Of a DNA stretch of 60,704 nucleotides, positions 15,596 through 54,863 are shown in pieces. Source of the DNA: Patescibacteria group bacterium (lineage in GTDB: Bacteria; Patescibacteriota; Microgenomatia; 2-02-FULL-39-11); contig JAMCUI010000015.1 in assembly GCA_023379265.1 (NCBI GenBank), forward strand, positions 1-60,704, read 5' to 3'. Under the pieces are notes generated by a model, which saw only the letters and a program-made list of their open reading frames with translations, made no database searches and had not been told where the DNA came from. Position numbers and translations under genes: made by a program. How positions within the stretch are numbered: the first letter of the stretch is position 1; each line of letters starts with the position of its first letter.

Positions 15596-15979
15596 ATGTC
15601 CAACAGGTGTATTTATAGCCTTTCAACACAATTTCCCTGGAACTTTTTCCCGAATTCTATAGATATAGAAGAAGACAGGGTTACTTTTACTTTCCACCAA
15701 TTTCTCGCATCACAATCACACAGTGTTGATATTAAAGATATCGCCAATGTATTTATAGAATCATCTCTCTTCTCTGCTACTTTGCAGGTAGTTTCTCACA
15801 CTTATATAAAAAATGATATTAAAATCGAGTATTTAAACAGGAAGAAAGCTGAAAAGGCGCGGAGAATTATCGAAGGACTCAGAACCTTTGCGGAACACAA
15901 CATAAATACATCCAATTATGGCGTTGATGAATTAATCACAAAAATTGAAGAATTTCATATAAAACATTCTGTATCATAA
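15596..15979 (+). CDS. Hypothetical protein
   Basis: 127-aa ORF co-directional with its neighbours. No recognisable motif. Confidence 0.4.
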   Translation: MSNRCIYSLSTQFPWNFFPNSIDIEEDRVTFTFHQFLASQSHSVDIKDIANVFIESSLFSATLQVVSHTYIKNDIKIEYLNRKKAEKARRIIEGLRTFAEHNINTSNYGVDELITKIEEFHIKHSVS

Positions 15980-16102
15980 AGTCTTGTTATTTTTGTTTCA
16001 GGAAAGTTTATATTCAGCTGAAGCATATCATTCGGATTCCCCGACCGTAAGGTCAAAGAAACATCAATTTCCATTTTTAGAGAAGTCTTATAGAATAAGA
16101 TC

Positions 16103-25170: not shown

Positions 25171-26007
25171 TTATTGGGTTCTCCAAATCAAAAAAAGCCC
25201 GAAAATTATTGCTGTTGTTGCAACTATTGACCAAAAATCCAAAATAGTGAGAGAAAAATCGCTTAAAATATAAATTTTATTCCTATAACCTCTGGAGAGC
25301 ATAGCCTGATAGATCTCTTCACTCAGTACTTGAGTTTTTCCAAAAAGAGTGCCCAAAGCGGAAGAGACAAGATGTCTGTTTTCCCACTGGGTAAACCGTC
25401 CGACCATCCGGCTTTTGCGGGCTAAAAACATGGAATTGACCGTTTCCAAAAGCACGAATATATATCTGTATGTCATCATTGTCATAATTATAAGAATCTG
25501 GGGAGCATGAAGCCGGTCAAGGGCTTTGAGGAGTCTGATCCAGGGTGTGGTCAATACCAGAAGTATACCAAGAGAGACTGAAGTGGCGACGCGGGTGAGA
25601 AGGAAAAGTGCCGTCAGAAGACCGTTTTGTGTCACTGCTATAAAGAAATGTTGTTGTGGATTATTTATGAGAGTGAGGAGAGGTTTTCCCGGAGTGAAAA
25701 AGTTAAAGATAGCCGGCAGCGCAATAATGCCGGTGAAAAATGGAAGGAAAAGCCAGACGCGGGTGATGAAAAATTTCAGCGAAATTTTTGAGATTCCGGC
25801 AAATATTAGAAGGAAAATATAAACGGAAATTATAAAATACAGATTTACGGAGAGATTAACGGCAAGAAGAAAAAGGATAAAGCAGACTATTTTTGTCCTG
25901 GGGTCAAGCCGCTGCAGAAAGCCGTCTTTCTTGGCGATTGTCTCTGAAAAGACGGAATTTTGTATGGCTCCGGTAATATTTTCCAGATTTTTTTCAATGA
26001 AAGACAT
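25171..26007 (-). CDS. ECF transporter transmembrane component (CbiQ/NikQ/EcfT-like)
   Basis: 278-aa polytopic protein between the M and O components; CbiQ-like ARKSRMVG loop. Confidence 0.8.
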   Translation of the reverse strand: MSFIEKNLENITGAIQNSVFSETIAKKDGFLQRLDPRTKIVCFILFLLAVNLSVNLYFIISVYIFLLIFAGISKISLKFFITRVWLFLPFFTGIIALPAIFNFFTPGKPLLTLINNPQQHFFIAVTQNGLLTALFLLTRVATSVSLGILLVLTTPWIRLLKALDRLHAPQILIIMTMMTYRYIFVLLETVNSMFLARKSRMVGRFTQWENRHLVSSALGTLFGKTQVLSEEIYQAMLSRGYRNKIYILSDFSLTILDFWSIVATTAIIFGLFLIWRTQ

Positions 26008-26009
26008 GT

Positions 26010-27005
26010 TTATTTATTTTTTAATTTGAAAACCTTAAAAAGTAAATACACGACAGATACTACAATAAATACGCCTAGAAATCCTGAAAAAAGATAGCCC
26101 AAAAAAGAATTACCCAAAACTGAAAAATTGTATCCTGAAAAAGGTGCGCTCCAAAGGCCAGTCCAGCGGTCAAACCCGGCCGGTATATACCCCAAACCTA
26201 GTTCCGAAAGCTGTTGTCGACTCCACTCACCCCAGGCAGTACCCGGGGTCAAAAGACCAAGAGGCGTAAGAAGGATGAGAAGAAAAATGATAACTATTGC
26301 CAAAGGAAAAAACCTGCCGGATTTTGCCACTTTTTTGTCGGGAGTTATTAGAGAGGGATTTGTCCGGTATATCCAGGATAGGGTAAGTCCTGTAACAAAG
26401 GCTTCAGCAAGGCCGGCGAGAGTCAAATGTCCCAGCATCATTGCCGGAATAGAAACGGTAAGACCATAGGGAAAATAAAGCGGTTGGCCGGTGATGCTGC
26501 GGAAAATTATTGGTTGGATTCCTAGTTCAACGGCAGCCAAAAGGGCAGCCAGATTTATAGCGATGTATCCGGCAACTGCAGCAGAGACGATTTTCCATCC
26601 GGTTTCTTTTTTCCATCCTGCCAAAAAACGGAAAATGGCATAGCCCGCTAGCGCCATGACAATAGCCATATTAAAAATATTTGCGCCCAGCGTCAGTATG
26701 CCTCCGTCGCCAAAAAATAAAGCCTGTATGATAAGGGCGACTGTTGTCGTCAGCATGCCAATCCATGGACCTAAAATAATTGATGATATGACTGTGCCTA
26801 CAGCATGGCCGGTGGTGCCTCCCGGAAGGGGTACGTTGAACATCATGATAAGAAAAGAGAGGGCGGAAAAAAGGGATATAAGAGGTATAGTTTTTGAATC
26901 AAGTTTCTTTTTGGCCTCTCGTGAAGCCTTCATGAGAAAAGGTGTACAAACCGTATAAAGAGTAAATGATGTAGTTGGGCTAAGATATCCGTCCGGAATA
27001 TGCAT
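26010..27005 (-). CDS. CbiM/NikM substrate-capture component fused to a PDGLE (CbiN/NikN-like) domain
   Basis: Diagnostic N-terminus MHIPDGYLSP. The C-terminal roughly 100 aa contain a TM segment plus TPGTAWGEW...GLWSAPFSGY (PDGLE-like). Confidence 0.85.
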   Translation of the reverse strand: MHIPDGYLSPTTSFTLYTVCTPFLMKASREAKKKLDSKTIPLISLFSALSFLIMMFNVPLPGGTTGHAVGTVISSIILGPWIGMLTTTVALIIQALFFGDGGILTLGANIFNMAIVMALAGYAIFRFLAGWKKETGWKIVSAAVAGYIAINLAALLAAVELGIQPIIFRSITGQPLYFPYGLTVSIPAMMLGHLTLAGLAEAFVTGLTLSWIYRTNPSLITPDKKVAKSGRFFPLAIVIIFLLILLTPLGLLTPGTAWGEWSRQQLSELGLGYIPAGFDRWTGLWSAPFSGYNFSVLGNSFLGYLFSGFLGVFIVVSVVYLLFKVFKLKNK

Positions 27006-40320: not shown

Positions 40321-41505
40321 ATGGCTACAGGAGTTTTTCAGAGAAGTAAACCCCATCTTAATATCGGGACTATCGGTCACGTTGATCACGGTAAGACTAC
40401 ACTGACTTCAGCAATTACACACGTGTTGGCCCAAAAAGGTATGGCCAAAGCTCTGAAATACGAAGAAATAGATAATGCTCCTGAAGAAAAAGCCAGAGGT
40501 GTCACAATAAATATCCACCACTCCGAGTATGAAACAGCCAAACGCCACTATGCACATATCGATGCCCCAGGACATGCAGATTACATAAAAAACATGATCA
40601 CTGGTGCAGCCCAAATGGATGGCGCCATTTTGGTGGTCTCTGCTCCTGATGGTCCGATGCCCCAGACAAGAGAGCACATACTTCTGGCACAACAGGTAAA
40701 CGTGCCGGCAATTGTCGTTTTTCTTAATAAGGTCGACATGGTATCGGATAAGGAACTTTTGGATCTGGTAGAGATGGAAATCAGAGAGCTTTTGACCAAA
40801 TACAAATTCCCGGGAGACAAAGTCAAAATTATAAGAGGCAGCGCCCTCAAGGCTCTGCAGGGAGACGCGGAAGCTATCAAGTCAATTGAGGCTCTAATGG
40901 ATGCGGTAGACAGCGAAATTCCCACACCGGTACGTGATACAGACAAACCGTTCCTTATGCCTATTGAGGATGTTTTCTCAATCAAGGGCCGAGGGACAGT
41001 CGTTACCGGCAGAGTGGAAAGAGGAAAGATAAAAGTCAACGAAGAAATAGAGATAGTCGGTATAAAGGCCACACAAAAGACAGTTATCACAGGGGTCGAA
41101 ATGTTCAGGAAAACTCTGGATGAAGCGATGGCCGGAGACAATGTCGGCCTTCTTCTAAGAGGTGTCGAGAAAAACCAGGTGGAGCGCGGACAGGTAGTAG
41201 CCAAGCCTGGCAGTATCACCCCTCATACAGAATTTGAGGCTGAGATTTATGTCCTGACGAAGGAAGAAGGAGGAAGGCATACGCCTTTCTTCACAGGATA
41301 CAGACCGCAGTTTTATGTAAAAACTACTGATATTACTGGCGAGATTACCCTTCCCAAGGGAGTGGAAATGGTGATGCCGGGAGACAGTATCAAGATGACG
41401 GCAAAACTCATCGTGCCTGTAGCTCTTGAGGAAGGCCAGAGATTTGCAGTAAGAGAAGGCGGACATACAGTAGGTGCGGGAGTAGTAACAAAAATACTAA
41501 AGTAA
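40321..41505 (+). CDS. tuf: Elongation factor Tu
   Basis: 394 aa with [17 protein letters not shown] and NKVD. Confidence 0.98.
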
Positions 41506-41583
41506 AGAGTTATTTGAAATTCCGCAGCTTCTAGCGGACATACAGTAGGTGCGGGAGTAGTAACAAAAATACTAAAGTAAAGA
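41459..41583 (+). repeat. Repeat-spacer-repeat: the 3' end of tuf (50 nt including the stop) repeated at +75 nt
   Basis: 41459-41508 is identical (50/50) to 41534-41583, with a 25-nt unique spacer. Confidence 0.9.
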
Positions 41584-41601: not shown

Positions 41602-41910
41602 ATGCCGAAGGGACGAATTCGCGTACGTTTAAAAGCTTATGATGGCAGAATCATTGATGATTCATGCCAGAAGATACTGGATACGGCCGTAAGGACCGGT
41701 GCCCGGGTGGTGGGACCAATACCTCTGCCGACGGAAAAACAGCATTTTTCCGTCCCAACATCCCCGTTTACCGATAAGGATAGCCGGAATGCGTTTATGG
41801 TGAAGATACATAAGCGCCTTATCGATATCATCGAGCCTACGGACAAGACTATTGACTCTTTAATGCATCTGGAACTGCCAGCAGGCGTGGACATAGAAGT
41901 AAAGATGTGA
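41602..41910 (+). CDS. rpsJ: 30S ribosomal protein S10
   Basis: 102 aa starting IRVRLKAYD; position after tuf. Confidence 0.95.
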
Positions 41911-42068
41911 AAGTAGAGTTGGACTTTGGGTCAAGAGGATTGTGTTGTAATTCAAGAGCAGGCGTGGACATAGAAGTAAAGATGTGAAAGTAGAGTTGGA
42001 CTTTGGGTCAAGAGGATTGTGTTGTAATTCAAGAGCAGGCGTGGACATAGAAGTAAAGATGTGAAAGT
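41880..42068 (+). repeat. 77-nt unit x 2.45 beginning 30 nt inside the 3' end of rpsJ
   Basis: 41881-41957 equals 41958-42034 (77/77). 42035-42068 repeats the first 34 nt. Each copy contains AGVDIEVKM plus TGA. Confidence 0.9.
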
Positions 42069-42096
42069 TCCAAAATGTCAGACGGGTTGATTTGGT

Positions 42097-42125
42097 TTGA
42101 TATATCAGACTTAAATCTGTATAAT
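42097..42125 (+). promoter_or_regulatory. Consensus sigma70 promoter inside the rpsJ-rplC spacer
   Basis: TTGATA, 17-nt spacer, TATAAT. Confidence 0.55.
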
Positions 42126-42193
42126 TGTAAAAGATCATGATGGTGAAAAAACACCGTTATAAAACAAAATAATCGGATGTTGCGGGATATTTA

Positions 42194-42219
42194 TAGCCCC
42201 TTATCCGGGGCTATTTTTT
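42194..42219 (+). terminator. Rho-independent terminator 19 nt upstream of rplC
   Basis: TAGCCCCttatccGGGGCTA followed by TTTTTT. Confidence 0.75.
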
Positions 42220-42238
42220 GTTTGAATGATAATAAATT

Positions 42239-42892
42239 ATGATACAAGCAATTTTAGGCATAAAAAAAGATCAGTCGCAGACTTTTACACCGGATGGGAA
42301 AAGAATCCCGGTGACACGCGTATCGACTGCTTCATGCCGGGTGGTAAACGTAAAAACTGAAGATAAAGACGGTTACAATGCTATCCAGCTTGGTATTGGT
42401 AGCAAAAGAGCCGTTACTCTCACTAAACCTGAATTGGGAAATTTGAAAAAGGCGGGGTTGGACAAAAATCCACCCCGTTTTTTGCGGGAAGTCAGCATAG
42501 AGAACAAAGAAGATTTTACCGATGAGAAACTCAAACCGGGTTCAGAAATAAAAACTTCTGACGTATTTAAGGAAGGTGATGTTATCCAGGTGACCGGTGT
42601 GACCAAAGGTAAAGGTTTTCAGGGAGCAGTAAAAAGACACCACTTCAAGGGAGGTCCCAGGACCCACGGACAGTCAGATCGCGAAAGGGCTCCCGGCTCA
42701 ATAGGCCAGACTACTACTCCGGGAAGAGTCTACCGCGGCAAAAGAATGGCAGGACATATGGGCAGCGATACAGTGACAGTCAAAAATCTGAAAGTAGTCA
42801 AAATTGATGATGAAAAAAACATATTGACAGTTTTGGGTGTGGTACCTGGTGGAAGAAATTCGCTGCTTGTTATTAAAAAGTTAACAAATTAA
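42239..42892 (+). CDS. rplC: 50S ribosomal protein L3
   Basis: 217 aa with GVTKGKGFQG; S10-operon order. Confidence 0.95.
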   Translation: MIQAILGIKKDQSQTFTPDGKRIPVTRVSTASCRVVNVKTEDKDGYNAIQLGIGSKRAVTLTKPELGNLKKAGLDKNPPRFLREVSIENKEDFTDEKLKPGSEIKTSDVFKEGDVIQVTGVTKGKGFQGAVKRHHFKGGPRTHGQSDRERAPGSIGQTTTPGRVYRGKRMAGHMGSDTVTVKNLKVVKIDDEKNILTVLGVVPGGRNSLLVIKKLTN

Positions 42893-42962
42893 TTAGGGGA
42901 AGATTAGAACAGGGGCAGCAAACTAAATCTGCAATTATCATTACCAAATTATAAGTACAAAT

Positions 42963-43841
42963 ATGCCAAGGGTAAAAAAAGATAAAGAGCAAATAGAGAC
43001 AAAGAAAGATCTGAAAATTGACGTATACAACCTGAGCGGAAAAGTGACTGGGAAAGCGGATCTGCCGGGTGAGTTTTTTGCGGCAAAGGTATCAATGCCT
43101 CTTATAAATCAGGCTATCCGTGTATATACCGCAAACCAGCGTGCAGGTACCCACGACACAAAAACCCGGACTTTTGTTATCGGTTCCACCAAAAAAATTT
43201 ACCGCCAGAAGGGTACAGGGCGTGCCAGACACGGGGATATCAAAGCCCCGATTTTTGTCGGTGGAGGAGTGGCTCACGGCCCAAAACCAAAAGACTATTC
43301 CCTTTCTTTGCCAAAAAAGATGAGACAAAACGTTTTTTGCGCATCACTCACTGACAAGTTCCAGAATGGGAAGCTAAAAGTAGTGACGGGATTGGCAGAG
43401 ATCGAGCCTAAGACAAAAAATGTCAACCTGATGCTCAAGAATTTGGGATACTTGGCTGACGATGGAGCACTTGGAAAAAGCGTCATATTGGTATTGCCTT
43501 CAGTCATGAGGAATGTGATTTTGGCCGGAAGGAATATCGAAAATCTCTCTGTTTCCCAAGTGGAAAATTTGAGCGCTTATGATGTAATGAGGGTGCAAGA
43601 AGTGCTTTTTATGAAAGAGTCTCTCAAGGTTTTGGATGACAGAAGCGCTTCAAAAGTTAAAGAAGACAAAAAGGGGAAAAAGGCAATAGAAATGGATTTG
43701 AGTCTCGGGACGGGAAAGCCGGAAGAAAAGAAGCCAAAAACGGTAACAGCAAAGAAAGCAAAAAAGGAAGAGAAGCCAGCCAAAAAGACTGTAAAGAAAG
43801 CAGTCAAAAAGGTAAATGGAAAATCAGCAAAAAAGAAATAA
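42963..43841 (+). CDS. rplD: 50S ribosomal protein L4 with an approximately 85-aa Lys-rich C-terminal extension
   Basis: L4 core (QKGTGRARHGDIKAPIFVGGGVAHGPKP) followed by a KKPKTVTAKKAKKEEKPAKK... tail. Confidence 0.93.
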   Translation: MPRVKKDKEQIETKKDLKIDVYNLSGKVTGKADLPGEFFAAKVSMPLINQAIRVYTANQRAGTHDTKTRTFVIGSTKKIYRQKGTGRARHGDIKAPIFVGGGVAHGPKPKDYSLSLPKKMRQNVFCASLTDKFQNGKLKVVTGLAEIEPKTKNVNLMLKNLGYLADDGALGKSVILVLPSVMRNVILAGRNIENLSVSQVENLSAYDVMRVQEVLFMKESLKVLDDRSASKVKEDKKGKKAIEMDLSLGTGKPEEKKPKTVTAKKAKKEEKPAKKTVKKAVKKVNGKSAKKK

Positions 43842-43854
43842 GTTGATATTTTAT

Positions 43855-44151
43855 ATGTCAGAAAACGTAATTATACGACCAATAATAACTGAAAAATCAT
43901 TGATAGACGCAAAAAACGGAATCTTTACATTTGCAGTGGAAGGGAAAGCGACAAAATTCCAGATAAAGAAAGCGATAGAGTCGATGTTTAGCGTCCATGT
44001 CAAATTGATCACAACCGTAAAGACTAAAGGTAAAAAAAGGACTGTAGGCAGGAAAAGGCTGACGGTATATAAGCCTGATTTGAAAAAAGCCAGAGTCAAA
44101 TTGGCAAAGGATGAGAAAATAGATTTGTTTGAAGTAGGAGAAGGAAAATGA
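43855..44151 (+). CDS. rplW: 50S ribosomal protein L23
   Basis: The ATG at 43855 gives [15 protein letters not shown]. Confidence 0.93.
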
Positions 44152-44921
44152 CAAGATTTAGAAATTTCATGGAACCGAAATCACTCATGAGTATATTACC
44201 GAAAAATTCCGGAAGGAATAATTCCGGGAAAATTACAGTGAGGCATCAGGGAGCGCGTGAGAAAAGGTATTACCGTGAGATTGATTTTAAGAGGGATAAA
44301 TTTGGGGTAGAGGGAAAAATCATTGCCTTTGATTATGACCCAAATAGGAATGTGGAGATAGCCCTGGTGCTTTACAAAGATGGAGAAAAAAGGTATATTT
44401 TGAAACCTCAGGGTTTGAAGGTGGGGGATATGGTGCTTTCCAAGCAGGATGCCGAGGCCAGATTGGGCAACAGTCTTTTTTTGGCAAATATACCTATTGG
44501 TACTTCTGTACACAATGTTGAACTAGCAGAGGGAAGGGGTGGGCAAATGGTAAGAGGCGCCGGAACTGCAGCAGTAGTCTTGGCAAAAGAAGGAAGTTTT
44601 GCCCACGTCAGGTTGCCTTCAGGTGAGATCAGGATGATAAAAGGCAACTGCTATGCCACAGTGGGACAGCTGGCAAACTCCGAATGGAAATCACAAATTA
44701 TTGGGAAGGCCGGAAGGAAAAGGCATATGGGGATAAGGCCACAAGTACGCGGAACAGCAATGAATCCCCGTTCTCATCCGCATGGTGGAGGAGAAGGTAG
44801 AAGCGGAGAGGGTCTCAAACAGCCCAAGACTCCATGGGGGAAGCCTGCAAGAGGTTTGAAAACCAGAAAACCGGGCAAGTTCAGCGATAAATATATATTA
44901 CAAAGGAGAAAGAAGAAATAA
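44148..44921 (+). CDS. rplB: 50S ribosomal protein L2
   Basis: [37 protein letters not shown] and [13 protein letters not shown]. Shorter N-terminus than E. coli L2. Confidence 0.95.
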
Positions 44922-44922
44922 T

Positions 44923-45207
44923 ATGAGCAGAAGCCTGAAGAAAGGTCCATACATAAACCAGAAATTGCTGAAAAAAGTAATCGTGATGAAAAATTCCGGG
45001 CGCGGCGAAGCAGTGAAGACTTGGGATAGGAGTTGCCAGATACCGCCTGAATTTGTCGGCCAGAAGCTGGCTGTTTATAACGGAAGGCATTTTATAGAAG
45101 TGTTTGTGACTGAGGCGATGGTCGGCCATAGGCTTGGAGAATTTGCGCCAACCCGCACATTTAGGGGACATGGACAAGTGACAAAGAGAGTTTTGGAGAA
45201 GACATAA
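44923..45207 (+). CDS. rpsS: 30S ribosomal protein S19
   Basis: [10 protein letters not shown]...[16 protein letters not shown]. Confidence 0.96.
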
Positions 45208-45210
45208 TCT

Positions 45211-45708
45211 ATGAATAACACGGTTTATATAAAATATTTGCGGATATCCTCCAAGAAAATGCGGGGATTGGCAAAAATAGTAGTAGGTATGCCGCCCAAA
45301 GTCGCTTTGGACAGGCTGTCTGTAGTCAGCGGAAAAGCCGGCAGAATGATGAGTCTGGTCGTAAAATCGGCCATGGCCAATGCGACCAACAATATGAAGC
45401 TAAACGCCGCAGACTTGCGTATCAAAAGGATAGAGGTTTTGGAAGGACCTGCATTCAAGCGCTGGCAACCGGTATCCAGGGGGATGGCGCACCAGATAAA
45501 AAAAAGAACTACGCATTTGAGAATAGAGCTTGAAGAGAAACAGGGTAAGACGCTTCCCGCAGCAGCAGGAAAGGATAATAAGCCGGTTCAGGAAAAGAAA
45601 AGAGTAGAAAAAGCAGAAGTAAAAGCGCTGCCACAAGAAAAAGAAAAGAATATGAAAAAAGAAGAAATTGTGACTGAAAGGAGAGAAAAAAGTGGGACAA
45701 AAAGTTAA
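45211..45708 (+). CDS. rplV: 50S ribosomal protein L22 with a Lys/Glu-rich C-terminal extension
   Basis: L22 core followed by about 50 extra residues; operon order. Confidence 0.9.
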   Translation: MNNTVYIKYLRISSKKMRGLAKIVVGMPPKVALDRLSVVSGKAGRMMSLVVKSAMANATNNMKLNAADLRIKRIEVLEGPAFKRWQPVSRGMAHQIKKRTTHLRIELEEKQGKTLPAAAGKDNKPVQEKKRVEKAEVKALPQEKEKNMKKEEIVTERREKSGTKS

Positions 45709-46351
45709 TCCTAAAGGTTTTAGAATAGGTCCTCTTTATAGTTGGGAGTCAAGATGGTTTGCCAACAAGAAGGATTATAAGAACTTTGTGGTGGAAGATG
45801 CCAAACTGCGCAAATCACTTCTTGCCAGGCTGCAGCCTGCAGGCATAGTGAAGGTGGAAATTGAAAGATCGATAAACAAGATCAATATTATCCTTAACGT
45901 GGTGCGTCCCGGAATGGTGATAGGTCGGGGCGGAAGCGGTATGGAAACGGTAAAAAAATTCATAATTGATACAATTTTTGCCCACAGGAGAAGCATAAAG
46001 CAAAATATCAAGAAAGCATCCCTCAAAGTGGATATTAGGGTAGAACCGGTAAAGGAGCCTTATCTTTCTTCATATTTTGTCGCTTCCCAAATTGCCGAAC
46101 AGTTGGCCAAAAGGCTCAATCATAAGAGGGCAGTGTCCATGGCGATGGAAAAAGTGAAGACTGCCGGTGCAAGAGGAGTAAAAATTGTCCTATCAGGAAG
46201 GATAGGCGGGGCGGAAATCTCAAGACGAGAAAGCTATAAGACTGGTACTATACCCTTGTCGACATTACGTGAGGATGTTGATTTTGCGGCTGTACCATCC
46301 CTGACTAAATCCGGTTACATAGGCGTGAAGGTCTGGATTTGCAAGTCATAA
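45692..46351 (+). CDS. rpsC: 30S ribosomal protein S3
   Basis: GTG start; MGQKVNPKGFRIG; KH domain. Confidence 0.95.
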   Translation: MGQKVNPKGFRIGPLYSWESRWFANKKDYKNFVVEDAKLRKSLLARLQPAGIVKVEIERSINKINIILNVVRPGMVIGRGGSGMETVKKFIIDTIFAHRRSIKQNIKKASLKVDIRVEPVKEPYLSSYFVASQIAEQLAKRLNHKRAVSMAMEKVKTAGARGVKIVLSGRIGGAEISRRESYKTGTIPLSTLREDVDFAAVPSLTKSGYIGVKVWICKS

Positions 46352-48640: not shown

Positions 48641-48826
48641 ATGGCTAAAGTATCTGATATAGTCAAATTCAAGAAAAAACAGAAATTCAATGTACGCGCG
48701 CATAACCGCTGTCAGCTATGCGGAAGAAACAGGGGATATATGAGAAAATTCGGTTTATGCCGGCTTTGCTTCCGCGAGTTAGCCCTGAAAGGTGAATTGC
48801 CAGGAGTAGTAAAGGCTAGCTGGTGA
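48641..48826 (+). CDS. rpsN: 30S ribosomal protein S14, type Z (zinc-binding, 61 aa)
   Basis: [10 protein letters not shown]...CRLCFRE. Confidence 0.95.
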
Positions 48827-48994
48827 GGCGTAAGACAGACTTAATTCGTAGGTTTTGATGAGTGACGGAAACAGCGGGAGTAGTAAAGGCTAGCTGGTGA
48901 GGCGTAAGACAGACTTAATTCGTAGGTTTTGATGAGTGACGGAAACAGCGGGAGTAGTAAAGGCTAGCTGGTGAGGAGTAAGACAGACTTAATT
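48803..48994 (+). repeat. 74-nt unit x 2.6 beginning 24 nt inside the 3' end of rpsN
   Basis: 48803-48876 equals 48877-48950 (74/74). 48951-48994 repeats the first 44 nt with one mismatch (48977). Confidence 0.9.
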
Positions 48995-49010: not shown

Positions 49011-49406
49011 ATGATGACTGATCCGATTTCAGATTTGCTGACACAGATAAAAAATGCCTATATGGCGGAAAAAAAGACGATTGAGGTATCCCACAGTAAT
49101 ATGCAGGAGTCTCTTGTAAAGCTTCTTTCCCGAGAAGGTTATCTGGGTAAAATTGAGATAAACAAAAAAGATAAAGTGAAAAAGACCATATCGGTAGAAA
49201 TGGTTTATGAGGATAAGAAACCCAGATTGACAGAGATAGTCCGTGTCAGCAAACCCAGCAAGAAAGTATATATCTCTAAAAATGAGATACCCAGAGTCTT
49301 GGGAGGGTTGGGGATTGTGGTCATATCCTCTCCTGCAGGTTTAATCTCTGGCAGGGAAGCAAGGAAAAAAGGTATAGGCGGAGAGTTAATCTGCAAAATT
49401 TGGTAA
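49011..49406 (+). CDS. rpsH: 30S ribosomal protein S8
   Basis: ATG at 49011; MMTDPISDLLTQIKNA...GGELICKIW. Confidence 0.95.
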   Translation: MMTDPISDLLTQIKNAYMAEKKTIEVSHSNMQESLVKLLSREGYLGKIEINKKDKVKKTISVEMVYEDKKPRLTEIVRVSKPSKKVYISKNEIPRVLGGLGIVVISSPAGLISGREARKKGIGGELICKIW

Positions 49407-49476
49407 GCCTTTTTAGAATTTAGATAAATACTGATGATAAAGAATAGACGGAAAGCTGATCTATAAGATTTGGTAA
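49374..49476 (+). repeat. Diverged second copy of the 3' end of rpsH at +70 nt
   Basis: 49374-49406 and 49444-49476 match at 26 of 33 positions with no gaps, and both end in TAA. The peptides are IGGELICKIW* and IDGKLIYKIW*. Confidence 0.8.
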
Positions 49477-54035: not shown

Positions 54036-54863
54036 ATGATTCATTTAAAAACAGTTGAAGAGATAGAAAAAATGAAAAAAGGAGGCAAGATCCTCCATGA
54101 CGTGCTGGGGATTTTGGTAAAGGAAGCCAAACTGGGAGTCTCACTGATATCACTTGACCAAATGGCAGAAAGGCTCATCGTGGAGAGGGGTGGGACATCA
54201 TCTTTTAAGCGGGTAAAAGGTTACCACTGGACTATCTGCAGTTGTGTCAATGATGTGGTGGTACACGGTATTCCCGATGAGTACAAGATAAAGACTGGTG
54301 ATATTGTCGGTATAGACTGCGGGGTATATTTTGAAGGTTTCCATACGGATGCGGCCTGGACGGTATCAGTGGGGAACAGCGACAGTAAAGTGAAAAAATT
54401 TCTGGATACTGGGGAGGCAGCCTTCAGGAAGGCAATAAGCCAGGTAAAATTGGGAAATTACATTTATGACATATCAAAAGCCATACAGGATACTGTGGAG
54501 AAAGAAGGCGGGTATGGAGTATCAAGGACTCTTGTCGGACACGGGGTGGGGAGGCAGCTTCACGAGGAGCCGGAGGTGCCGGGTTATGTCAGTAGTCCCA
54601 GTACCTCATTCCATAAATTTAACCGTATGGACAATCTTCGAGAAGAGGACGAAAAATTAAGGGAACAAAGTATTAGGGAGTCTACGCCAAGGCTGGTTCC
54701 GGGCCTAGTGATTGCCATTGAGGTGATTTATAATATGGGAAGTCCGGACGTGGTTTACAAGGGAAATGACGGGTGGACAATTGTCACGAAAGATGGTAAA
54801 ATATCAGGACTCTTTGAAGCGACCGTGGCGGTAACTTCCCACGGTTGCGTTGTTTTGACTTAG
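54036..54863 (+). CDS. map: Methionine aminopeptidase type I with an approximately 27-aa insertion
   Basis: Metal ligands in GIDCGVYFEGFHTD, VGHGVGRQLHEEP and IAIE. Extra segment SSPSTSFHKFNRMDNLREEDEKLREQSIRESTPR. Confidence 0.9.
   Translation: MIHLKTVEEIEKMKKGGKILHDVLGILVKEAKLGVSLISLDQMAERLIVERGGTSSFKRVKGYHWTICSCVNDVVVHGIPDEYKIKTGDIVGIDCGVYFEGFHTDAAWTVSVGNSDSKVKKFLDTGEAAFRKAISQVKLGNYIYDISKAIQDTVEKEGGYGVSRTLVGHGVGRQLHEEPEVPGYVSSPSTSFHKFNRMDNLREEDEKLREQSIRESTPRLVPGLVIAIEVIYNMGSPDVVYKGNDGWTIVTKDGKISGLFEATVAVTSHGCVVLT

Follow-up and report, generated by a model that had tools for sequence, protein, structure and literature searches.

The rpsJ gene of this Patescibacteria chromosome is followed by a tandem array which, in all likelihood, is a real, selectively neutral and copy-number-variable minisatellite lying between the rpsJ stop codon and the promoter/leader of rplC. 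The repeat is polymorphic, it drifts neutrally and it belongs to a class of arrays that occurs throughout the genome. The window analysed here is the whole stretch of 60,704 nt; the locus within it, all on the + strand, is made up as follows.

41602..41910, + strand: rpsJ (ribosomal protein S10, 102 aa), intact; from the open reading frame list, with Pfam Ribosomal_S10 found on the identical protein in other contigs
41908-41910, + strand: rpsJ stop codon TGA, which falls within the first repeat copy
41880..42068, + strand: tandem array A-B-A-B-A, 77 nt x 2.45 (Tandem Repeats Finder and direct-repeat search)
41880..41914, + strand: A1, the native rpsJ 3' end, made of the final 28 coding nt, TGA and AAGT; the sole copy present in strain GCA_023487465.1
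41915..41956, + strand: B1, the 42-nt filler, homologous (about 85% identity) to its 41-nt counterpart in the sister species
41957..41991, + strand: A2, non-coding copy of the rpsJ end (repeat search)
41992..42033, + strand: B2, second filler copy, the extra unit relative to the sister species (repeat search and sister comparison)
42034..42068, + strand: A3, terminal partial copy abutting the native spacer (repeat search; a Logan contig starts at 42039)
42069..42238, + strand: native rpsJ-rplC spacer, called Z, with 1/170 mismatches against the sister species
42097..42125, + strand: promoter-like site TTGATA-17-TATAAT, 11/12 matches, inside Z; a similar box is present in spacers of relatives
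42193..42224, + strand: terminator-like GC hairpin and T-run inside Z, 15-20 nt before the rplC start
42239..42892, + strand: rplC (ribosomal protein L3), from the open reading frame list and homologues

Tandem Repeats Finder describes 41880-42068 as an array with a period of 77 nt, 2.5 copies, 100% matches and a score of 378, and in a direct-repeat search of the window positions 41880-41956 equal 41957-42033 at 77/77 sites. As assembled, the 77-nt unit is present 2.45 times without any mismatch, in the layout A(35)-B(42)-A-B-A. The three copies of the 35-nt segment A (starts at 41880, 41957 and 42034) are identical, and A consists of the last ~30 nt of rpsJ, TGA included, and the next 4-5 nt. 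The array holds a 112-nt exact self-match at offset 77, which cannot have arisen by chance in 60.7 kb. Its units stand head to tail and are longer than the 10 nt that a VNTR or minisatellite unit must at least have, which places them in this class. Segment B is of another kind: in alignments it shows no likeness to the coding sequence that precedes A or to the spacer that follows, and the idea that it is a diverged copy of one of the two was rejected for this lack of similarity. The first-pass annotation had reported the 77-nt unit in 2.45 identical copies and a rpsJ-rplC spacer of 328 nt. Both descriptions agree with our analysis (rpsJ ends at 41910 and rplC starts at 42239). The tail that it gave as 43 nt per unit is actually 47 nt after the TGA, 42 nt of which are filler B.

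Three copy states of the rpsJ locus were found, 0.45, 1.45 and 2.45, the last being the state assembled in the window. Copy number thus varies among close relatives at one and the same locus, as is typical of a VNTR. The sister species (CAZFNL010000088.1, ~93% identity) carries A-B-A at the same rpsJ site with a period of 76 and 1.45 copies. Its B measures 41 nt and departs from the B of the window at 6 positions and in 1 gap, and one base separates its two A copies. This assembly is independent of ours, with a contig name in k141_ style (MEGAHIT k141). The same-species strain GCA_023487465.1 (JAMDBJ010000003.1) has no repeat at all; the order is X-A-Z, with 0.45 copies and a 174-nt spacer. 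The Logan assembly SRR10267473 is also X-A-Z, having no B, no second A and a spacer of 174 nt. Both repeat-free assemblies are 99.0-99.9% identical to the window and encode an identical S10 protein. When the window is compared with GCA_023487465.1 over the 20 kb that are comparable, length differences are seen only at three arrays, with +75 nt at tuf, +154 nt at rpsJ and +74 nt at rpsN in the window. No such repeat was found at the rpsJ loci of 79 other relatives, and two scans of JGI metagenome contigs yielded no match to the A-B junction or the A-Z junction.

It is important to ask whether assembly could have produced this structure, since 77 is a common k-mer size. According to this explanation the true state is X-A-Z or 1.45 copies, and the assembler made or over-extended a loop at a repeat of k-mer size. 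Several observations speak for it: the two same-species assemblies GCA_023487465.1 and Logan SRR10267473 are without the repeat, the window stands at least one unit above its nearest relative at all three arrays (tuf, rpsJ and rpsN), where loops have maybe been over-walked, and the tuf array with its filler is seen in this assembly alone. Moreover, several arrays in the genome exceed short-read length, so that their copy counts must be estimates. Against it stands the neutrally diverged B in the independent MEGAHIT k141 assembly of another species. The 112-nt A-B-A fits into one 141-mer, therefore the structure must be present in the reads of the sister sample. A Logan contig of run SRR10278331 is 100% identical to window positions 42039-45892 (3854 nt) and its first 30 nt are exactly the end of A, a length of k-1 at the k of 31 used by Logan. 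Such a start is the expected signature of a branch in the assembly graph, where A leads either to Z or to something else, and the break differs from the bubble-closing point of a known C/T variant inside A. In the repeat-free SRR10267473, by contrast, the k=31 Logan contig passes straight through A unbroken, so that population is truly without the loop. Periods in the genome range over 69-81 with counts spread over 71-77, there is no spike at 77, and the period is thus not fixed near an assembler k across the assembly. Finally, the last copy of the rpsN array has a substitution of its own, so the B-A-B junction there does not come from an over-walked collapsed loop at the usual k; this would take a k of about 26 or less. 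These comparisons show that the 77-nt unit exists in the organism and was not created by assembly at k=77. The warning given in the first-pass annotation, that an artefact must be excluded, was sound; that the unit itself is a k-mer product is contradicted by the diverged homologue in the independent sister assembly and by periods of 69-81. As a whole we hold the artefact explanation to be unlikely, and it survives solely for the second unit, that is for 2.45 versus 1.45 copies.

The DNA that follows the array is of a different character. The single mismatch in the 170 nt of Z between window and sister species points to strong constraint on this spacer. In the spacers of ~20 Gottesmanbacteria relatives the promoter-like box, a CGGAT(G/T) motif and the hairpin with its T-run recur, and the 3' part of the spacer is detectable by BLAST in other genera. 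Judged from this conservation, Z is probably a candidate leader or attenuator of the rplC operon without an Rfam family; two Rfam matches in the spacer downstream of the array are both far below the gathering scores. Relatives typically have rpsJ-rplC spacers of 120-170 nt, which means that the ancestral 174 nt are normal and that 154 nt are due to the array. In every allele Z comes directly after an A copy, and the upstream context of the promoter is therefore constant across copy numbers. Positions 42097-42238 of Z also hold a CGGAT motif and a small hairpin or an 11-codon mini-ORF.

Neutrality of the array can be judged from filler B. Between window and sister species B has diverged by ~15-17%, and fourfold-degenerate sites in 21 neighbouring genes of the same species pair have diverged by 17.7% (275/1555). 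B changes at about the fourfold-site rate, thus it evolves approximately neutrally. Within each genome the copies are homogeneous: both A copies of the sister species read AGCGGG and all three A copies of the window read AGCAGG at the same place, and in the rpsN array GAGATG in GCA_023487465.1 stands against GAGGCG in the window, in each case shared between copies. Lineage-specific bases common to all copies make up the pattern that repeated expansion and contraction, i.e. concerted evolution, would be expected to leave.

We also considered that the array could be a functional non-coding element. It might stabilise the 3' UTR, act as a decoy for a regulator of the rpsJ end, or serve as a spacer whose copy number sets, in the manner of a rheostat, how much read-through from tuf-rpsJ reaches the rplC promoter. 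The array lies between two transcription units beside a promoter-like site, strains vary in its copy number and identity among the A copies is maintained inside each genome, all of which would suit such a role. Homogenisation of A can be explained by slippage alone, however, and B has a neutral rate. The array is wholly absent from one strain of the same species, and there are ~44 arrays of unrelated sequence at unrelated genes. A structured RNA was rejected, as Rfam covariance models gave no match on the rpsJ array and folding of the array against shuffled sequence revealed no stable fold and no stimulatory structure (z = +1.24). A function of this kind appears quite improbable to us. S10 is unaffected by the array because the first copy holds the complete gene end and the stop codon. 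Expression of rplC is probably unaffected as well, because every allele ends in A and then continues into the same spacer.

The absence of a fold also bears on translational recoding. The first-pass annotation had noted that the -1 frame of rpsJ runs without a stop through the first spacer and ends again in AGVDIEVKM*, and it had suggested that a frameshifted S10 variant might be made. As a statement about the sequence the former is true, the -1 frame being open from 41856 to 41987; the latter is left without support, as there is neither a slippery site nor a fold nor conservation in relatives. Recoding would demand a -1 (or +2) shift near the end of rpsJ, after which the ribosome would read B through ...ELDFGSRGLCCNSR... 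and a second AGVDIEVKM to give an extended S10. No X XXY YYZ heptamer is present in 41856-41910, the only zone where the shift could work, and rpsJ has just one heptamer of this type, at a point (41628) where the -1 frame is not open. The -1 frame of the sister species meets a stop inside B; the period of 76 places its second copy in the +1 frame, which has stops inside A. The strain with the identical S10 protein has no array, and the tuf and rpsN arrays, with periods of 75 and 74, have a different relation to the reading frame. By chance alone, ~1/6 of cases would show a -1 frame free of stops over ~26 codons at the base composition of the unit, from which a stop frequency of ~6.5% per codon was estimated. 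Programmed -1 frameshifting, as in dnaX and in IS element transposases, shares with rpsJ only an open alternative frame past the zero-frame stop. The rpsJ locus differs from it in all three of its marks, the slippery heptamer, the stimulatory structure downstream and the conserved frame. We consider recoding exceedingly improbable, and as far as sequence comparison reaches the frameshift reading is refuted.

A neutral minisatellite at rpsJ has many counterparts in this genome. In the assembly (1.53 Mb, 20 contigs) there are 76 short-range direct-repeat structures, 44 of them with a period of 69-81 nt. When 42 units were compared all against all, the mean score was 14.5 as against 14.4 for shuffled controls, i.e. 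the units are unrelated in sequence, with a single strong pair, in which the parts of one array stand at two different contig ends. The same 74-nt array is present at C16:17-122 (contig start) and C20:58965-59077 (contig end); arrays of this kind interrupt the assembly, and contigs C16 and C20 are probably adjacent. Base composition of the units (A 30%, T 30%, G 21%, C 19%) is near the ~40% G+C of the genome. In about 21 arrays the repeat runs across the stop codon of a long ORF, in ~12 across a start codon; 2 are inside an ORF, with periods divisible by three, and the remaining ones are at tRNA genes or between genes. Such positions fit a position-blind duplication process combined with selection in a gene-dense genome. 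The lengths of A and B vary, being 35/42 at rpsJ, 44/30 at rpsN and 50/25 at tuf, and only their sum is approximately constant. In the sister species A-B-A structures with periods of 76, 73, 70, 73, 75 and 73 were found in 179 kb sampled. As a control, 400 kb from another genus of the family yielded 2 repeats of this sort, both of them at a site resembling a tRNA. On the basis of these genomes the arrays appear to be a genus-specific phenomenon. The genome also has a class of half-size periods near 36-46 nt. The repeats at C10:104-306, C11:54893-55014 and C20:28476-28586 (periods 37/72, 46 and 40) resemble 3' halves of tRNAs, with T-arm motifs, and are of this half-size class. Long imperfect repeats with a period of 27, 36 or 72 that are rich in GGT/CCA occur at C8:31186-32558, C19:92812-93875, C2:1-537 and C14:38098-38219. 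Several of these are at contig ends, and with their collagen-like (Gly-X-Y) coding look they form a class apart from the 75-nt arrays.

Three more arrays lie in the window.

41459..41583, + strand: array A(50)-B(25)-A(50) at the tuf 3' end, period 75; found neither in the same-species strain nor in the sister species
48803..48994, + strand: array at the rpsN (S14) 3' end, period 74 x 2.6 (Tandem Repeats Finder and repeat search)
49376..49476, + strand: decayed A-B-A at the rpsH (S8) 3' end, period 70, where ~24/31 bases still match

At tuf, A comprises ~47 coding nt, TAA and 3 nt, and the 25-nt filler is unique. The insertion is 75 nt long, made of the 25-nt filler and a re-copy of the preceding 50 nt, and with it the tuf-rpsJ gap measures 96 nt instead of 21; both in the sibling strain and in the sister species the site is empty. 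Because it is absent from the 99.0-99.9% identical strain GCA_023487465.1 as well as from the sister species, the tuf array would be the youngest such event in the window. The third copy of the rpsN array has one C-to-A change; elsewhere this array is found with 1.6 copies (GCA_023487465.1) or with a second copy of just 17 nt (sister species). At the rpsH site the sister species has kept a 27-nt exact pair with a period of 70 (CAZFNL010000088.1, 22474-22570), and the decay of this pair in the window shows that arrays can persist and decay over species-level time. Two further cases come from the sister species. At the adk 5' end (25924-26038) a 37-nt copy of the gene start has been inserted 73 nt upstream; here B is the native secY-adk spacer and there is a TTGT microhomology at the junction. 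At the rplC 3' end (about 15960-16060) there are two diverged copies ~69 nt apart. What is constant at the founding sites of tuf and sister adk is the period, not the inserted length.

We infer the order of events, the part played by slippage in changing copy number and the filtering by selection as follows. An insertion of ~77 nt directly after the rpsJ stop codon, made up of the 42-nt filler B and a second copy of the 35 nt that stood before it (A), would have founded the A-B-A structure, and this would predate the split from the sister species. With A copies 77 nt apart, slipped-strand mispairing or unequal exchange could then add units, giving 2.45 copies here. The same slippage may have removed units precisely in the other strain (0.45) and may homogenise the copies within a genome. 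B is common to the window and the more distant sister, so the simplest history would be an old A-B-A that was lost precisely in one strain and gained a unit in the strain of the window. Misalignment between close direct repeats, slipped-strand and RecA-independent, is how bacteria such as E. coli gain and lose repeat units. It accounts for unit gain, for precise loss between the 35-nt A copies and for homogenisation, but leaves unexplained the founding insertion with its filler and the fixed step of ~75 nt. The ~44 arrays of the genome would stem from a duplication process specific to the genus, gene ends being the places where an insertion leaves genes intact. As the founding step we would most readily assume a template switch that is coupled to replication and bridges a fixed distance, e.g. 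one SSB wrap on the lagging-strand template.

Searches for a source of the filler were negative at all levels: no match of at least 14 nt beyond chance in the rest of the genome and the loci of 80 relatives, nothing significant in local alignments to both strands of the DNA within ~1 kb, and no match with at most 3 mismatches in 21 genomes of the order. Ordinary tandem duplication of native sequence therefore does not explain the founding event. Divergence of a copied filler beyond recognition is also contradicted by the young tuf case, which leaves no time for it. No gene-content difference that could account for the process was found when Cas1, RVT_1, flap nuclease and SSB were compared. Neither Cas1 (PF01867) nor the reverse transcriptase RVT_1 (PF00078) is present in this genome or in the sister species, both of which are 93-94% complete; in controls the PF01867 search was positive in 3/19 other genomes and in 7/14 named control genomes. 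A flap nuclease and one ordinary SSB are present in both genomes as in relatives. Copies within arrays show no adenine-specific differences. A shared mobile element was rejected because the units are unrelated in sequence, a reverse transcriptase or Cas1 as cause because both are absent, and a lost flap nuclease or an atypical set of SSBs because both proteins are present as in relatives.

An integrase or reverse transcriptase would nevertheless leave footprints of similar appearance, either by off-target CRISPR spacer acquisition with A as repeat and B as spacer, or by recombination of a rolling-circle cDNA concatemer. A-B-A with a filler of no recognisable source resembles repeat-spacer-repeat, the fillers have no source in the genome, and non-integer copy numbers fit the Campbell-type insertion of a ~75-nt circle or of a concatemer. 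Besides the missing Cas1 and RVT_1, the variable lengths of A and B argue against this origin: their sum alone is constant, which is not what a Cas1-Cas2 ruler produces. Fillers within an array are identical, and at the sister adk 5' end B is native and just a 37-nt A copy has been inserted. With no Cas1, an A of 35, 44 or 50 nt at three loci and identical fillers, the arrays are not CRISPR or neo-CRISPR loci, and we give very little credence to an integrase or reverse transcriptase footprint.

Returning to the template switch over a fixed distance, we suggest tentatively, as a possibility that is far from certain, that in this genus some step of replication or repair may be measured off by a physical ruler of ~75 nt and leave patches that would consist of a re-copied flank of 20-60 nt and a filler that is not locally templated. 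The tuf insertion, which a 99.5%-identical strain lacks, and the rpsJ and rpsN arrays would then be fresh footprints of this step, and gene ends would be the places where patches survive selection. Such a ruler could be the length of lagging-strand template wrapped once around an SSB tetramer, or else a DNA intermediate in the form of a small circle or concatemer. To our knowledge, no described bacterial process yields a pattern of ~75-nt patches.

The MIRU-VNTR and ETR loci of Mycobacterium tuberculosis are similar to the rpsJ array in having units of tens of bases, strain-variable copy numbers and no required function. MIRU and ETR units are ~50-100 bp long. MIRU copies are arranged head to tail, mostly between genes of operons, and are thought to be co-transcribed (PMC3635867). 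MIRUs form a dispersed family with a shared consensus, whereas the arrays described here share the period only, each locus having its own sequence, and the comparison of 42 units (14.5 vs 14.4 shuffled) reveals no consensus of the MIRU type. Unlike MIRUs, the units here start inside the 3' end of a gene and contain a non-native filler, and the host belongs to CPR/Patescibacteria.

By analogy, the closest published parallel may be the perfect tandem repeats of Borgs. The parts of Schoelmerich et al. (2023) considered here describe perfect, rapidly evolving units that arose independently at numerous loci of a single genome and are almost lacking in related ones, and call it a mystery where the unit's central part comes from (PMC9879509). 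The rpsJ array has the traits named in those parts, i.e. perfect units, flanking partial repeats and a start in the end of an ORF (PMC9879509). The Borg units quoted there are 18-21 nt long and enriched in adenine, many of them give in-frame amino-acid repeats, and a fixed period of ~75 nt is not described in these parts of the paper (PMC9879509). The arrays studied here lack the adenine enrichment (A 30%), their period is 69-81 nt and most of them are out of frame and non-coding. Borgs are archaeal elements, and the present arrays are on a bacterial chromosome. A search of the literature for a description of such repeats in Patescibacteria found none.

Taken alone, the rpsJ locus is an ordinary, harmless and neutral polymorphism that satisfies the definition of a VNTR or minisatellite. 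Its value is that near-identical and sister genomes provide a clean example with three states (0, 1 and 2 extra units) of a genome-wide peculiarity, namely dozens of perfect unrelated arrays with one shared step of ~75 nt, confined to one CPR genus. If the fixed step is a real molecular ruler, it would point to something not yet described in how these reduced bacteria replicate or repair their DNA. In practice, arrays of this kind interrupt short-read assemblies, inflate intergenic spacers and create spurious ORFs, and they could act as strain markers in metagenomes.

Two other length differences were noticed between window and sister species. An extra 114 nt between rplF and rplR of the sister species is missing in the window. 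In map (methionine aminopeptidase, 54036-54863) the window has a 75-nt (25-aa) in-frame insertion at 54601-54675 relative to the sister species; it is common to strain GCA_023487465.1 and contains no repeat, and this is a length difference of the same quantum inside coding sequence.
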